Shown here in pieces: positions 3,940 through 15,742 of a stretch of 57,813 nt of DNA; positions within the stretch are counted from its first letter, which is position 1; each line of letters starts with the position of its first letter. Origin of the DNA: a virus (taxonomy: Duplodnaviria; Caudoviricetes); the IMG/VR virus record IMGVR_UViG_3300028586_000026, positions 1-57,813 of that record; one strand, given 5' to 3'. The position numbers and the translations under genes are program-made. The notes beneath the pieces are model-generated. The model was not told where the DNA came from and did no database searches. It was given only the letters and a program-made list of their open reading frames with translations.

Positions 3940-4337
3940 GCCGGCATCTCTCGGATCGCGATGTGTCCACGCATCACCGGCCGGGCGCTGGGGTCATCGC
4001 ACCAGCGCACGATCAAGTGCATCTGGTCCGTCCGTCGCGCCAATGCCTCCAGCGCTTCCTTCCACCCGTGACAGGCCGCGCACAGCGTCCACAGCCCCTC
4101 GTCCGGGCAATGCACCGCGCCGCCGTCCGCCACCGGCATCTTGTGGTCGACCACCGTGCCGAGAACCGTCCGGCCGATCTCCGCGCAGCGCTGGCAGAAC
4201 GGCTGCTCGCGCCTGAAGGCCTTCGATCGCCGATCCCACCGCGCATCGTACCCACGCTCGCGATACGGCGTCCTCGGAGCGCCCCGCTGCCGCGTCGGCT
4301 GACGCCCGCCATTCCGAGCGCGGAAGATCTGCGGCAT
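3927..4337 (-). CDS. Packaging-associated HNH endonuclease (HK97 gp74-like)
   Basis: RGYDARW, CQRC, VDH, LCAACH; adjacent to terminase genes. Confidence 0.88.
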   Translation of the reverse strand: MPQIFRARNGGRQPTRQRGAPRTPYRERGYDARWDRRSKAFRREQPFCQRCAEIGRTVLGTVVDHKMPVADGGAVHCPDEGLWTLCAACHGWKEALEALARRTDQMHLIVRWCDDPSARPVMRGHIAIREMPACSS

Positions 4338-4430
4338 CAGATTTTTTCGATTTTGGTCCGCGAGAATCGGTTTGGCATCCGCCCCTGAACCGAAAGCTCG
4401 GATCGATTAATCGACACCCCCCACCCCTTC
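4338..4430 (-). other. Candidate cos/packaging-initiation region
   Basis: Non-coding. G-run GGGGTGGGGGGTG, perfect palindrome TCGATTAATCGA (4403-4414) and an A-tract upstream of the HNH gene. Confidence 0.4.
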
Positions 4431-4507
4431 CTGGCTGTCCGGTTCATTCGATCACCGCGCAGGATCGATTACGGGGGCCGTGGGCGGGCGTGGGGCGTGC
4501 CGGAGGC

Positions 4508-4762
4508 TCAGGAGCCCACGCCGATGCGGGGCTTGCCTGTGGGGCCCTGGTCTGGGGCCATGGCTGCCAGCACTGCCTGGCTGTGCTCTTGATGGCGGAC
4601 CGCCAGCTTCAGGTAGCCGATGATCTCGCGGTTGTTGTGCAGCACCGTCTGGGCCTGCGAGCGCTGGTCCCCCTCGATCTTGCGGCACTTGGCCTCGATC
4701 TCGGTGATCAGCTGGGCCAGGTGCTCCTCCAGCTTCGCGCCGGTCGGATTGTCCGAAGACAT
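4508..4762 (-). CDS. Hypothetical protein (84 aa)
   Basis: MSSDNPTGAKLEEHL...; helical, same strand as late operon. Confidence 0.6.
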   Translation of the reverse strand: MSSDNPTGAKLEEHLAQLITEIEAKCRKIEGDQRSQAQTVLHNNREIIGYLKLAVRHQEHSQAVLAAMAPDQGPTGKPRIGVGS

Positions 4763-4769
4763 CAGGATG

Positions 4770-5005
4770 AGCATGCGAGGCCTCGTCGATGGTCGCTGAC
4801 CTCCCCCGCTGAATGGGAGGGTGGAAGTCGAAGGGCCGGGAAGGAGGGTCACCCTCCGGCAATTAGGTGCCAGGCGTTCCAGCCCAGCGCTCACCCCGCC
4901 GGGTGATTGCTCTCTACCGGCCGAGAGCACGTGGCGGCCTCTGATCATTCAGCGCTGGCGAACCGGACGCTTCCCAGGCGCGCCGGTCAGCGTGCGCTGA
5001 TCTGG
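4770..5005 (-). ncRNA. Candidate structured RNA / cis-regulatory leader
   Basis: Dense nested inverted repeats and a 9-nt long-range complementarity (4807-4815 with 4946-4954). Confidence 0.4.
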
Positions 5006-5006
5006 A

Positions 5007-5369
5007 TTACTGCTGCGCGCCCTGGTCGCTGGCCTGCTGCTCGGTCTCGGCCGGGGCCGGATCCTGCGCAGCGGCGGTGTTGGCCGGGATCGCAGCGGCG
5101 AGGGTCGAGGCCGAGGCCTTCATCTCGGAGATGATCGAGGCGAATTGCGCGCCGTCGCCGATGGCATTGGCCTGCTCGAGCCGATCGATGAGGCCGGTGA
5201 TCGCAGCGGCGGCGGCTGCCTCCACGGCGGTGTTGGCGTGCACCTGGTCGATGAGATTCTGCAACGTCTGCTGGGCCATGTCGCTCTCCTGCATGTGGGC
5301 CGCCTGCCGTCTCAGCAGGGCGTCCAACTTCGCTTCGATGCGGCGGCCTCGGCCGATCCAGTCGAGCAT
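5007..5369 (-). CDS. Hypothetical Ala-rich protein
   Basis: MLDWIGRGRRIEAKLD...; alternative start at 5280 with a GGAG RBS. Confidence 0.6.
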   Translation of the reverse strand: MLDWIGRGRRIEAKLDALLRRQAAHMQESDMAQQTLQNLIDQVHANTAVEAAAAAAITGLIDRLEQANAIGDGAQFASIISEMKASASTLAAAIPANTAAAQDPAPAETEQQASDQGAQQ

Positions 5370-5387
5370 GCGAGGTCCGTGCGCTGG

Positions 5388-5471
5388 TGGTGAGGAAGGC
5401 AGGGCTCGAACCTGCCGTGCCGTAGGCGGCGGATTTACAGTCCGCTGGACGTCCGCCTGTCCATCTTCCTC
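5388..5471 (-). tRNA. tRNA-Tyr(GTA) with encoded CCA
   Basis: Cloverleaf: GAGGAAG/CTTCCTC acceptor, GGAC/GTCC D-stem, GCGGA-CTGTAAA-TCCGC anticodon arm, long variable arm, GCAGG-TTCGAGC-CCTGC, A73-CCA. Confidence 0.9.
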
Positions 5472-5514
5472 AAACGAATGCTGAAAAAAACTTCGTTGTA
5501 CTTGCGAATATCTG

Positions 5515-5543
5515 TTGACGCTCAAAGCATCGGCAAGTATTAC
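5515..5543 (+). promoter_or_regulatory. Sigma70-like promoter of moron gene
   Basis: TTGACG-17 nt-TATTAC in an AT-rich patch, upstream of RBS GAGGA and ATG 5573. Confidence 0.6.
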
Positions 5544-5572
5544 ATAGTCATCGGCAGCGAGGAACCAAGCAA

Positions 5573-5746
5573 ATGACCAGCAACTCCAAGATCACCACCG
5601 CCAAGACCGCCTGGATGGTTCTGGATCGTGACACCGGCAACAGCGTCTTCACTTCCAAGAACGAGACCAAGGCCCGGGCCAAGTGCGAGACCCTGAACGG
5701 GAAGTACAACCGGGAGCGGACCCGGGTCGTCCCCTTCCCTTACTGA
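5573..5746 (+). CDS. Moron-like 57-aa protein (not in ORF track)
   Basis: MTSNSKITTAKTAWMVLDRDTGNSVFTSKNETKARAKCETLNGKYNRERTRVVPFPY; own promoter, RBS and downstream hairpin. Confidence 0.75.
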   Translation: MTSNSKITTAKTAWMVLDRDTGNSVFTSKNETKARAKCETLNGKYNRERTRVVPFPY

Positions 5747-5786
5747 GGGGTGGGGCTCCGGCCCCTCTTCCTCTACGGGAGAGGGG
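5746..5786 (+). terminator. Hairpin(s) after moron gene
   Basis: GGGGC-TCCG-GCCCC followed by TCTT, plus an alternative CCCCTCTTCC/GGGAGAGGGG stem. Confidence 0.45.
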
Positions 5787-5789
5787 TGG

Positions 5790-5951
5790 TCCGTGCTGCG
5801 GGCAGAGTCGTAGCAAAGAGGGGGTCCGAAGCCTCCCTCCGGGCCGCGCTGCTCATCCTTCGACCCGGGTGTCCGGGGAGTACAAGGGGCGGTCGTCCGG
5901 CACCGCGAACGGTGCGGGACTCGGTGAATCAGTCCAGCACCGGAGAGTCAA
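5790..5951 (-). promoter_or_regulatory. Putative late promoter and structured leader (pR'/tR'-like)
   Basis: TTGACT (5946-5951) just after the NusG-like stop; hairpins GCACCG-TTCG-CGGTGC and a C(UUCG)G stem followed by TTT. Confidence 0.4.
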
Positions 5952-5978
5952 GCGGCGGCTGTGGACGCCGCCGCCATG

Positions 5979-6830
5979 TCACGCCCGCTCGAACTGCTGC
6001 CGCTCCAGCTCGACGGGCGTGGCCCGGCCGAAGATGCTGACCGCCACCTTGTAGCGATCGCGCGCCACGTCGGCCTCCTCGATCACGCCGTCGAAGCTGG
6101 CGAAGGCCCCGTCGACCACCCGCACCGCCTCGCCGATCTCGATCCGGTCCAGGTCGTCGATCGTCGGGGCCGCACCGATCAGGACCTCAGCGAACTTGCG
6201 CATCTCCTCGTCGGGCACGGTGACGGGCAGGATGACCGGCGCCGGTCGTGGCTTGCCCTGCTCATCCAGCAGCGACTCGTGGCGCTCGATCCGCTCGACG
6301 TCCCATGCGAACGCCCGGTCGTGGCGCAGGCACGGCATCGTGCCGTAGACCCGCCGCTCCATCAGCCAGGGATGCTCGACGGCCAAGCGCTCCAGCTGGC
6401 TCCGCTGCTCAAGCCCGACGAACACTGTGTGGTCGAACAGCGGCATGCGGATCCGCCGGATCCGGCCCGAGGCGAGTCGCTGCTCGATCTCGTCCCGGGG
6501 CCGGAAGAACGGGATGCAGGCGTTCCGGAGCTTCTCGCACAGCTCGCCGGTGTGGCCGACGCAGGCCTGCACCATGGCCCACTGCTTGCCGGCCGGCAGG
6601 TCGTGCTCGGCTCGGCGGGCGGCGATGCGCTCGGCCTCCCGCTCCCGACGCTCACGGTCATGCCGCTCGCGCGGGCTCTCGGTGGGCTCGTCCGCCTTCG
6701 CTGCGTCCGCCGCATCGCGCTCGGCCCGCTCGTCCTGCAGGATCACGCCGCGGCGCATGAACGCCTTGTGGGCCCGCTCCCGCTCCAACTTCAACCGCAG
6801 CCGCTGCTTCCGGGTCAGCCTTTGGCTCAC
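5979..6830 (-). CDS. NusG-family late antiterminator
   Basis: NGN-like domain (WAMVQ...PLFDHTVFV) and KOW domain (GEAVRVVDGAFASFDG...VSIFGRATPVEL); lambda Q position. Confidence 0.88.
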   Translation of the reverse strand: MSQRLTRKQRLRLKLERERAHKAFMRRGVILQDERAERDAADAAKADEPTESPRERHDRERREREAERIAARRAEHDLPAGKQWAMVQACVGHTGELCEKLRNACIPFFRPRDEIEQRLASGRIRRIRMPLFDHTVFVGLEQRSQLERLAVEHPWLMERRVYGTMPCLRHDRAFAWDVERIERHESLLDEQGKPRPAPVILPVTVPDEEMRKFAEVLIGAAPTIDDLDRIEIGEAVRVVDGAFASFDGVIEEADVARDRYKVAVSIFGRATPVELERQQFERA

Positions 6831-12039: not shown

Positions 12040-12483
12040 TCAGGCGACCGCAGCGAGCGGCTTCCGGGCGGCCTGGCCGCCGATGACACCGAGGCCGAGG
12101 CTCTTGGCGAGCTCGGAGCGCTGGGCGCTGTAGTTCGGGCAGACCATCGGGTAGTCGGCCGGCAGGCCGAAGCGCTGGCGGTAGGCATGCGGATCGAGCC
12201 CGTGCCGGGTGAGGTGCCGCTTCAGGGTCTTGTAGGACCGGCCGTCGATGAAGCTGACCAGGCCGTCGGGCCGGATCGACTTGCGGATCTCGGACGGGCT
12301 GGGTTGGGTCGAATCGGCGTCGACCGGGGCGCCGGCCGCGCCGACGCCGGCGATCGCCGCGTGCACGGAAGCAATCAGAGCCGGCAGCTCGGACGCTGCA
12401 AGGTGGTTGCCGCGGACGTAGCTGGCGACGACCTGCGCCGTGAAGTCGACGGCGCTACCGGTTTCGGGCTGCTCTTCAGTCAT
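12040..12483 (-). CDS. mucR: MucR/Ros family regulator
   Basis: TAQVVASYV, ELPALIASVH, KSIRPD, YKTLKRHL, YRQRFGLPADYPMVCPNYS, LAKSLGLG. Confidence 0.92.
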   Translation of the reverse strand: MTEEQPETGSAVDFTAQVVASYVRGNHLAASELPALIASVHAAIAGVGAAGAPVDADSTQPSPSEIRKSIRPDGLVSFIDGRSYKTLKRHLTRHGLDPHAYRQRFGLPADYPMVCPNYSAQRSELAKSLGLGVIGGQAARKPLAAVA

Positions 12484-12527
12484 CGTGTGCTCCAGTCGCG
12501 CGGGAGCGCCCCGCGTGGGCGGGCCTT

Positions 12528-12869
12528 TCAGCCGGGGAAGCGGGGGACTCGCGGGGGCAGGCCAGCGAGGCACCCGGCATTGGCGCGCGGGACCGGCAGG
12601 CTTTCAGCCTCGAACACGTCGGCGCGGCGATGCGAGACCGCGCCATCGCGGTCGATCAGCAGCCAGTCGCCGGTCACGGGCGTGGCGGCCCGGCAGAAGT
12701 CGTTGGGCACTGTGACGTAGGCGCATTCGCCATCGGCGATGACAGTGACCCGGCTCTCGGTGGCGATTTCGTCGGTCGCCGCGATGCGCCAGGCGGTGAC
12801 GGCACGGCTGATCACGTGTGTCGGGGCCAGCAGCTCGTCGGTCGCGATGGTGCGCAACGGCGTGTTCAT
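12528..12869 (-). CDS. Hypothetical protein
   Basis: MNTPLRT...GDWLL; overlaps upstream stop. Confidence 0.6.
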   Translation of the reverse strand: MNTPLRTIATDELLAPTHVISRAVTAWRIAATDEIATESRVTVIADGECAYVTVPNDFCRAATPVTGDWLLIDRDGAVSHRRADVFEAESLPVPRANAGCLAGLPPRVPRFPG

Positions 12870-14722: not shown

Positions 14723-14970
14723 CAGGCGGCCTCGGTCTGCGACGCTATCCGCGAGCTACGCCGATCCTGGATCTTGTCGCGTAGGCCGTAGAGCAGCTCG
14801 AAGGTGATGCCGACCGATCGGCCAGCATCCGCATCCACCAACCGCTTGAAGTAGCCCGCTGGGATGCTGTCTCGCGCCTTCAGCGTCCGAACATGGTTCT
14901 CCGGGATTCCGAGGATCTCGGAGGCTTTCGCGACGCCAAGCGCGTCTATGACATCGGAGAACGAGTTCAT
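14722..14970 (-). CDS. cro: Cro-like repressor
   Basis: Short HTH (GVAKASEILGI...RDSIP), divergent from cI. Confidence 0.75.
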   Translation of the reverse strand: MNSFSDVIDALGVAKASEILGIPENHVRTLKARDSIPAGYFKRLVDADAGRSVGITFELLYGLRDKIQDRRSSRIASQTEAA

Positions 14971-14977
14971 GGAACAA

Positions 14978-15045
14978 TCGCTACATGAGGTAGCGACAAA
15001 CGTCAACACGGCGCGTAGCGTTCCCATCGCTACCTTGCGTGTTAT
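14978..15045. promoter_or_regulatory. OR operators (3 sites) and PR promoter
   Basis: TCGCTAC-N5-GTAGCGA (14978-14996) and variants at 15003-15021 and 15027-15045; minus-strand TTGACG-17-TAGCGA. Confidence 0.8.
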
Positions 15046-15742
15046 GGACGCGAAGAAAATCAGGAAAGAGCAGGGCGAACGCCTGAAGTCCGCGCGAGCA
15101 GCTGCGGGTTACCGCTCGGCGCGCGAAGCTGCTCTGCAGAACGAGTGGCCTGAGAGTTCGTACCGCGCCCATGAGGGAGGCACCCGGACCATCGGTCAGG
15201 ATGACGCGGAGCGCTATGCGGCGCGCTTTCGGTTCGATGGGGTGGACGTGACCGCCCGCGGAATCCTGTTCGGCGACGCGGATGCTCCGGCCCAGAACGT
15301 CGAGGACCTCAACGTTGTCGGCGTGAAGGGCCTCGTGAGCGCGGGCGGGGTGATCGAGACCGCATCCGAGCAGCTTGCCGACGGCGATGATCTATACGAG
15401 ATCTCCGTCCCGTTCCCTGTCGAGGAAGGAACCATCGCGTTCCGTGTAAGCGGCACCTCGGGTTATCCGAAATTCGACCCAGACGACGTGGTTCTTTGCT
15501 CCAAACATGGAGAGAACCCGGAGCGCCTCGTTGGTCTATATGCGGTCGTTATGACAGGAGCGGGAGATCGCTACTTAAAGCGAATCCTCCAGGGCTCGAA
15601 AAAAGGCCGCTTCCATTTGGAAAGCTACAACGCACCGCTGATTTCCGATGCTCGCATCAAGTGGGCTTCGGGCATCATCAGCACTGTGCATGCCCGAAGC
15701 TGGTCCCAGGTTGCTAAGGCCGCGAAGCAGGCGGCCGAGTAG
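15044..15742 (+). CDS. cI: CI-like repressor (HTH + S24 peptidase)
   Basis: N-terminal HTH, Ala-Gly site VSAGG, RVSGTS serine, YLKR lysine. Confidence 0.9.
   Translation: MDAKKIRKEQGERLKSARAAAGYRSAREAALQNEWPESSYRAHEGGTRTIGQDDAERYAARFRFDGVDVTARGILFGDADAPAQNVEDLNVVGVKGLVSAGGVIETASEQLADGDDLYEISVPFPVEEGTIAFRVSGTSGYPKFDPDDVVLCSKHGENPERLVGLYAVVMTGAGDRYLKRILQGSKKGRFHLESYNAPLISDARIKWASGIISTVHARSWSQVAKAAKQAAE

Follow-up and report, generated by a model that had tools for sequence, protein, structure and literature searches.

A 232-nt non-coding gap in the genome of a Caudoviricetes virus (IMG/VR record IMGVR_UViG_3300028586_000026; 57,813 bp, rated 100% complete, ∼68% G+C, analyzed here over its full length as the window) is best explained as an accessory-gene slot that has been emptied. 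The gap (5006>4775, − strand unit) lies between an open reading frame (ORF) of 120 aa, ORF120, and one of 88 aa, ORF88. We give somewhat better than an even chance to the view that it sits in the leader part of the late operon and holds a row of cassette-boundary stem-loops, not one designed RNA. The whole segment that separates the antiterminator leader from the packaging genes (HNH, small terminase, large terminase, and portal) is a hyperplastic accessory region, with the gap as one of its junctions, and the late operon is probably antiterminator dependent. The original prediction had read this stretch as a candidate RNA switch, a proposal largely refuted by the sequences of related phages.

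We sought relatives in 146 Methylobacterium genomes and 401 genomes of the family, as well as among species-representative genomes, contigs from viruses and metagenomes, and records of phages and plasmids. With window positions 4338-5480 as the blastn query, phage and plasmid records gave no match. Only five related phages or prophages turned up and were compared: L003 (contig shared with L002, L006, and L036), L004, L005 (contig shared with L043), L008 (M. litchii; locus shared with L037), and L024 (genome G129; locus shared with L035 and L046). The nearest genome relatives of the window phage are Methylobacterium prophages. A DNA search of the 146 Methylobacterium genomes returned one real homolog (G129) together with 10 genomes that had matches of 20-44 nt. 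An ORF120-alignment search found no relative in genome contigs or metagenome contigs, and an ORF120 profile run over the 401 family genomes gave four matches, three of them distant and left out of the gap comparison.

The evidence that carries our explanation is a mosaic junction at 4858..4859, which we read as the empty slot and where L003, L005, and L024 have insertions or replacements. Exactly at this point (between window positions 4859 and 4857), L003 carries a 1317-bp insert that holds a decayed homolog of a 58-aa ORF (tblastn E 1.7e-7) and an opposite-strand, lower-GC ORF of 270 aa (L003 3258-4070, −). L024 carries a 216-bp insert with the 58-aa ORF intact at the same window position. 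In L005, an opposite-strand gene like that of L003 (287 aa, 540-1403, −; 75% aa identity) comes with an insert that replaces window 4929-4858. These opposite-strand inserts of L003 and L005 measure 1.2-1.3 kb, and their ORFs belong to no Pfam or PHROG family. In L004, everything past the first hairpin of the gap (H1) is replaced, and an opposite-strand ORF beginning with an apparent signal peptide is present. L008 has ∼73 nt between its homologs of ORF120 and ORF88, with hairpin H5 as the sole hairpin there. One site has different extra genes in close relatives and is empty in others, as at moron or hyperplastic-region boundaries, and the window is the version of the slot without any gene.

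The gene that follows the gap also changes. In the place of ORF88, just upstream of HNH, two relatives carry an Acb2/Tad1-like (hairpin-domain) gene on the − strand (PF24729; L004 2075-2329, E 4.7e-17; L024 921-1190, E 1.3e-15), and the presence of such genes suggests that the slot is an anti-defense or accessory hot spot. A contig from isolate run X3 joins window 4775 to 5076 via 163 unrelated letters. Most or all of the gap is gone or replaced in both L008 and this contig, which speaks against the switch, and most of the structured region is thus dispensable for the phages. From each of the DNA runs X2 and X4, a single 151-nt contig reached into the gap (at 4728-4875 and 4882-5029, respectively), and the contigs of RNA run X9 matched portions of 4300-4717 and 5044-5240 but nothing of the gap; none of these supplied further sequence for the comparison.

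Hairpins H1 to H6 differ in how they are distributed among these phages. H1 (4949..5000, −) is a long imperfect hairpin directly after the ORF120 stop, with an outer 7-bp stem (UCAGCGC/GCGCUGA); taken as 4949-4966/4983-5000, its 18-nt arms are 78% complementary. The shorter pairing TCAGCG/CGCTGA (4987-4992/4995-5000) leaves 2 nt between its arms, which is below loop size, so the realistic fold here is the longer H1. It follows the ORF120 stop in four of the five relatives (L003, L024, L005, and L004) and is missing in L008; the outer stem is nearly invariant, and the inner stem is variable (81% paired). H2 (4908-4929, −; TGCTCTC/GAGAGCA in + strand letters at 4908-4914/4923-4929), H3 (4891-4906, −; TCACCC/GGGTGA in + strand letters at 4891-4896/4901-4906), and H4 (4869..4888, −; GCUGGGC-UGGAAC-GCCUGGC, with two G·U pairs) form a block (4869-4929) found in L003 and L024 only.

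H5 (4843..4857, −) folds as GGAGGG-UGA-CCCUCC or, with a 7-nt loop, by pairing to CCUUCC; written as GGAGGGT/ACCCTCC (4843-4849/4851-4857), it would have a loop of 1 nt and is effectively 6 bp plus a triloop. A pattern search found it in L003, L005, L008, and L024, making it the most widely kept non-coding element, and L004 keeps its 3′ half and has an altered form, GGCGGG...CCCGCC (read by eye). The pyrimidine-rich linker UUCCCGGCCCUUCGACUUCCACC (4820..4842, −) is conserved after H5 in the alignment, and L004 has a similar tract. H6 (4800..4820, −; CCUCCC-loop-GGGAGG, arms 4800-4805/4815-4820) has a window-specific sequence. Relatives have other sequence in its place, some with a hairpin of their own, and from ∼4815 to the start of ORF88, the sequence is specific to the window.

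The small cassettes found in the segment vary among the relatives and comprise tRNA-Tyr with ORF120, the 58-aa ORF, opposite-strand low-GC morons, and an Acb2/Tad1-like gene or ORF88. Each cassette boundary would have its own GC-rich stem-loop: H1 would move with ORF120, H2-H4 would stand ahead of the 58-aa ORF, and H5 with its pyrimidine linker would stand ahead of the last accessory gene. H1-H4 abut H5-H6 because the 58-aa ORF is absent from the window, and loss of that ORF would have left what looks like one elaborate multi-hairpin RNA. In the − strand transcript, the stem-loops could define 3′ ends between cistrons, help to process or stabilize the RNA, or weakly pause or terminate transcription, with antiterminated RNA polymerase passing through them. 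In the DNA, they may be favored breakpoints where cassettes are gained and lost. This explanation calls for no switching driven by a ligand or by pairing.

Several observations weigh against the emptied-slot explanation. We infer the direction of events, loss or gain of the ORF, from an unrooted comparison of five relatives. The late promoter and terminated leader that we place upstream of the gap are read from a conserved alignment, and a consensus scan of the leader region called neither promoter nor terminator. A terminator scan likewise found nothing in the gap (4775-5006) or in the L008 spacer, and no hairpin of the window's gap is followed by a U-tract. No further H5- or H6-like copies occur elsewhere in the window, as a repeated boundary motif of the kind seen in T4-type phages would have. 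The H5-H6 part is no more stable than its shuffles across six phages (z from −1.0 to +1.3). Covariation, a check attached to the original prediction, was not significant among the homologs (n = 3-5): for n = 3, two of 41 pairs had changed on both sides, a count reached by 48 of 500 shuffles, and for H1 alone (n = 5), the score was reached by 199 of 500; homologs this few give such tests little power. Finally, a 53-nt block comprising a linker, H2, and H3 (4889..4941, −) is identical to L024 at 53 of 53 positions and to L003 at 51 of 53 and is absent from L005, L004, and L008. Its flanks (ORF120, H1, and H4) are only 78-79% identical to L024. Such identity is beyond what a mere spacer would show and needs either recent exchange or a sequence-specific function.

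Local hairpin density in the gap is above chance, but modestly. The gap contains five perfect 6-bp hairpins with loops of 3-10 nt, compared with a mean of 0.92 in 1000 dinucleotide shuffles; at least five were reached by 13 of the 1000 shuffles and, among 488 equally long genome windows, by 1.4%. The hairpin richness on which the original prediction drew was thus borne out, and all of the hairpin arms and complementary words that it listed are present at their positions, although two of the loops, of 1 nt and 2 nt, are too small. Folding stability gave less. Over the whole region, z was −1.50 on the + strand (15 of 200 shuffles folded as well) and −2.03 on the − strand (8 of 200), barely beyond shuffles, and 18% (+) and 15% (−) of 994 genome windows of equal length folded as well or better. 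Such marginal stability and the lack of significant covariation go part of the way toward what the original prediction had named as its refutation. Only H1 stands out: as a 60-nt hairpin (4944-5003), it is among the top ∼2% when set against 5776 genome windows, with z about −3 when its boundaries are chosen to fit the hairpin.

The G·U pairs and a few compensatory changes favor folding on the − strand RNA, as far as can be read from the alignments. The minimum free energy (MFE) of H4 is −11.7 kcal/mol on the − strand vs. −5.9 on the + strand, and two G·U pairs in H4 of the window and L003 are A·C mismatches on the + strand. In L024, H4 reads GCCGAGC/GCUCGGC: three pairs are changed (U·G to C-G, G·U to G-C, and G-C to A-U), one of them on both sides, and all are still paired. 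RNAalifold predicts seven pairs for H5, with G·U/G-C alternation. L005 and L008 have the same H5 arms with other loop letters and different spacing, and the arms of L003 pair via G·U, a pattern more in keeping with an RNA hairpin than with a palindrome bound by protein. Across the predicted pairs as a whole, 118 of 122 cells are paired on the − strand vs. 112 of 122 on the + strand, a count biased toward the − strand on which the structure was predicted. One change in L003 breaks an H2 pair.

The RNA switch fares poorly in this comparison. It had been proposed that the loop region at 4807-4815 (CGCTGAATG), which lies in the loop of H6, pairs with 4946-4954 (CATTCAGCG) as a kissing loop, pseudoknot, or competing fold, which could act as a translational switch for the small ORF. 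A perfect 9-nt complement is indeed present. However, perfect inverted repeats of at least 9 nt occur in 181 of 1000 shuffles and in 20% of genome windows, and the pair is therefore at chance level. None of four aligned relatives has a copy of 4807-4815, and the partner at 4946-4954 belongs to the 3′ arm of H1, which is conserved. The two partners would lie 1.2-1.3 kb apart in L003 and L005. The multibranch junction was to be closed by CCAGCGC/GCGCUGG, within the complementary words CCAGCGCT (4884-4891) and AGCGCTGG (4951-4958). This stem is down to five of seven pairs in L024 (read by eye), whereas the local hairpin H4, which shares its bases, keeps all seven through its three changes. The MFE fold of the window's − strand does contain a multiloop, closed by GAGGCC/GGCCUC beside the GAGG ahead of the ORF88 start, and this would favor control of translation. 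However, such sequestering of the Shine–Dalgarno sequence is not kept in L003 (read by eye), and the ORF88 homolog of L008 works with a 73-nt leader. We regard a switch of this kind as very improbable.

Other parts of the first reading stood. The gap is on the late, − strand transcription unit, as stated, and it is upstream of the packaging genes; it does not run directly from the tRNA to those genes but lies between two small ORFs. The stretch is also non-coding. An extension of the small ORF from an ATG at 4948 was rejected as not conserved: it meets a stop after two codons in L024, in L003 the 1.3-kb insert parts it from the ORF, and its peptide matches no family. A + strand ORF across the gap was rejected as well, its frame being broken by non-triplet indels in H1 of L024 (read by eye).

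The hairpins could instead be a terminator or attenuator cluster that stops unmodified RNA polymerase before the packaging genes and is read through with the antiterminator, like lambda tR′. The gap does lie between an antiterminator-like gene and the packaging genes, its stems are GC rich, and H5 is kept in nearly all relatives and followed in L008 by CCCUUUCAGAUUUUC. Nevertheless, with no terminator called, no U-tract after any hairpin of the window, and H1-H4 dispensable in relatives, we think such a cluster unlikely; the leader after the antiterminator gene, whose last hairpin is followed by UCUUUGCU (∼5840-5809), is a better candidate. Slightly less probable still is a reading in which sequence-specific selection maintains a discrete functional RNA, cis-regulatory or non-coding, made up of the gap or of H1-H4 within it (4859-5006), such as a processing or antitermination signal or a small RNA in an accessory or anti-defense hot spot. 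The identity of the 53-nt block to L024, the pairing of H4 through three changes, the hairpin density, and the Acb2/Tad1-like genes that share the slot in L004 and L024 all speak for a functional RNA. However, the 53-nt identity could also stem from recent recombination, and the element is missing in L008, in the X3 relative, and, H1 aside, in L004 and L005. Neither a promoter nor a U-tract terminator was found to bound an independent RNA.

Database and homology searches did little for a functional RNA either. A scan of the whole window with the Rfam 15 covariance models gave no match at the gathering score, and over 4400-6000, at E values up to 10, the only match was the tRNA, so the Rfam check proposed for the original prediction returned no family for the gap. 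A covariance model of H1-H4 found one true homolog (G129) in the 146 Methylobacterium genomes and 13 weak matches (19-28 bits), which we took as chance because none adjoins homologs of the phage's neighboring genes; within the window it found no second copy, only weak partial matches (best 14 bits). An exact 20-mer from H3 occurred among viral contigs in the L003 contig alone, and an exact 22-mer had no match in metagenome contigs. A degenerate H5 pattern hit five loci in viral contigs; one was the L005 contig, and the other four were otherwise dissimilar to the window. The narrower proposal that H1-H4 form a discrete RNA or cis-element of this lineage (with an RNA-level accessory function or as a processing or antitermination signal), for which H5 and its linker, kept in all six phages, would be the conserved partner, seems to us decidedly improbable. 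Only a shade less so is a DNA-level site, whether a cos or pac site, a regulator-binding palindrome, or a recombination target. Here, GGAGGGTGACCCTCC is a perfect 15-bp palindrome, TCAGCG/CGCTGA has 5 copies in 236 nt vs. 105 in 57.8 kb, and three different insertions or replacements share the breakpoint 4857/4858. However, the palindrome arms pair with other spacing in L005 and L008 or via G·U in L003, unlike a dimer-binding site, and relatives do not keep the additional copies of TCAGCG (4794, 4807, and 4987). The conserved stretch at 4338-4434, upstream of HNH, is a better place for a packaging site, and the contig ends mark no cos site, the record being cut within the portal gene.

Known systems resemble the gap and its surroundings in part. 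In lambda, the late-operon leader arrangement comprises Q, pR′, 6S RNA, and tR′. The window phage likewise has an antiterminator-like gene, then a conserved, short, hairpin-rich leader (5795-5951), and late and packaging genes further downstream; unlike the lambda leader, the gap is ∼800-900 nt downstream of the window's leader, is variable among relatives, and lacks a terminator tail. Intercistronic hairpins set segmental mRNA stability and processing at the RNase III sites of T7 and in the puf operon of Rhodobacter. The gap is like these in shape, since H1 is a ∼50-nt imperfect duplex right after a stop codon and H5, a single-stranded pyrimidine linker, and H6 precede the next gene, but it has no sequence similarity to any curated RNA family. 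The shape is likewise compatible with an RNase III or RNase E processing site.

Morons are described as carrying their own promoter and terminator (PMC3594210). Like the moron sites of temperate (HK97/lambda-like) phages, the slot lies within an operon, is filled in L003, L005, and L004 by deviant-GC genes in opposite orientation, and has stem-loops at its boundaries. Unlike morons as described there, the window's hairpins have no detectable sigma-70-type promoter or U-tract terminator beside them, a sigma-70-type scan having found no consensus around them, and the gap itself is without a moron. In the hyperplastic regions of T4-type phages, promoter/stem-loop (PeSL) cassettes are described as marking and mediating shuffling (PMC2839356). 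There, as here, intergenic stem-loops flank non-essential ORFs and coincide with the breakpoints of insertions, deletions, and replacements among close relatives. However, PeSL is a repeated promoter and terminator motif, whereas the window has neither a second copy of a hairpin motif nor a promoter consensus, and its phage is temperate, of the HNH/terminase type, and from another host. The gap hairpins resemble PeSL cassettes yet are not members of that kind.

As an emptied slot, the gap is an ordinary kind of thing, one more case in which phage mosaicism clusters stem-loops at cassette boundaries, here in a little-studied phage group. It also carries a caution, as a multi-hairpin RNA switch found by eye in 68%-GC DNA can prove to be at chance level once relatives are compared. 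Its value is for the map. In Methylobacterium-type prophages, the stretch from the antiterminator leader to the packaging genes is an accessory hot spot with a changing content of tRNA-Tyr, Acb2/Tad1-like genes, small ORFs, and opposite-strand morons, and new accessory or anti-defense genes could profitably be sought there. Were the 53-nt block a functional RNA, an RNA member would be added to such hot spots.

The genes around the gap are arranged on the − strand. Upstream are a DNA methylase and DnaB-like helicase (9895>8165), a replication protein (8219>7029), and an antiterminator-like ORF of 330 aa (6971>5979). The latter matches phrog_6386, "transcription antiterminator" (E 5.6e-18), and had no match in a Pfam search; its membership in the Q family rests on this one PHROG annotation. 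They are followed by tRNA-Tyr (GTA; 5471>5388) and ORF120 (5369>5007), which stops just before the gap, has no Pfam family above cutoff, and has homologs with 75-86% aa identity in L003, L004, L005, L008, and L024. Downstream of the gap, the start of ORF88 (4774>4508) reads GAGG (4784-4781), a 6-nt spacer, and ATG (4774-4772). ORF88 belongs to phrog_26726, which has no function assigned, and has homologs in L003, L005, L008, and L007 and at 16 genome loci. Beyond it are the HNH endonuclease (4337>3927), a member of phrog_4301 (3939>3583), the large terminase (3410>1404), and the portal (1404>1). The ends of the record fall inside the portal gene and are not biological ends. The gap accordingly belongs to the late-direction unit, with the Q-like antiterminator and tRNA-Tyr before it and HNH, terminase, and portal after it.

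Directly after the antiterminator-like ORF, a stretch at 5795-5958 (−) is conserved in the window, L003, L004, and L008. It contains TTGACT (5951>5946), a 17-nt spacer, and TTCACC (ATCTAT in L003 and L008), followed by a ∼110-nt leader with three hairpins, the last of which precedes UCUUUGCU; RNAalifold predicts 34 pairs in this leader, six of them with compensatory change in four sequences. By analogy with lambda pR′/tR′, the stretch is a candidate late promoter with a terminated leader. In L004, the leader is ∼45 nt from the tRNA. In the window, an insert of ∼320 nt (5795>5473) with lower GC (52-55%), found in the window only, separates leader and tRNA-Tyr. It contains a + strand ORF of 57 aa (5573-5746), whose ATG is preceded by GAGGAA and, further upstream, by a TTGACG-N17-TATTAC-like sequence. 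The point at which all relatives part from the window falls exactly at 5473-5479, and this insert (5473-5795) is another moron-like insertion. A phage tRNA-Tyr (GTA) heads the accessory segment in three relatives (L003 2399-2482, L004 940-1023, and L008 2452-2535); none was found in the 3.1 kb examined of G129. Rfam in gathering mode missed the tRNA-Tyr of the window, which scores 40.2 bits in E-value mode, above the 29-bit cutoff.

Three further candidates were considered and rejected. A sigma-54 promoter at TGGCACCTAATTGC has, read by eye, a spacing one base short of the consensus, and its GC element is missing in L024. For an attP or tRNA-fragment core or a CRISPR-repeat mimic, host genomes showed sporadic single short matches only. 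A family of repeated intergenic motifs was set aside, with no further motif copies in the window.

Some observations concern the surroundings of ORF88. In the more distant virus L007, its homolog (2486-2767, 57% aa identity) stands among apparent virion structural genes, not ahead of HNH, and given these neighbors, ORF88 may have a role in virion structure or assembly instead of regulation. The 12-mer CCTCGCATGCTC (− strand) has exactly two copies in the window, 4769-4780 and 5364-5375, over the starts of ORF88 and ORF120; the copy at ORF88 is window-specific, with relatives differing there, and the pair may be a trace of recombination between the two start regions. The non-coding sequence just ahead of HNH, window 4338-4434, persists even where the preceding gene is a different one, as in L004 and L024, with homology resuming at 4432-4434. 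The HNH-terminase module may have its packaging (cos) site or its promoter here. Farther away, the early region encodes a ROS/MucR-family regulator at 12040-12573 (−; PF05443, E 2.2e-40), and an S24-peptidase repressor-like ORF lies at 14864-15742 (+).

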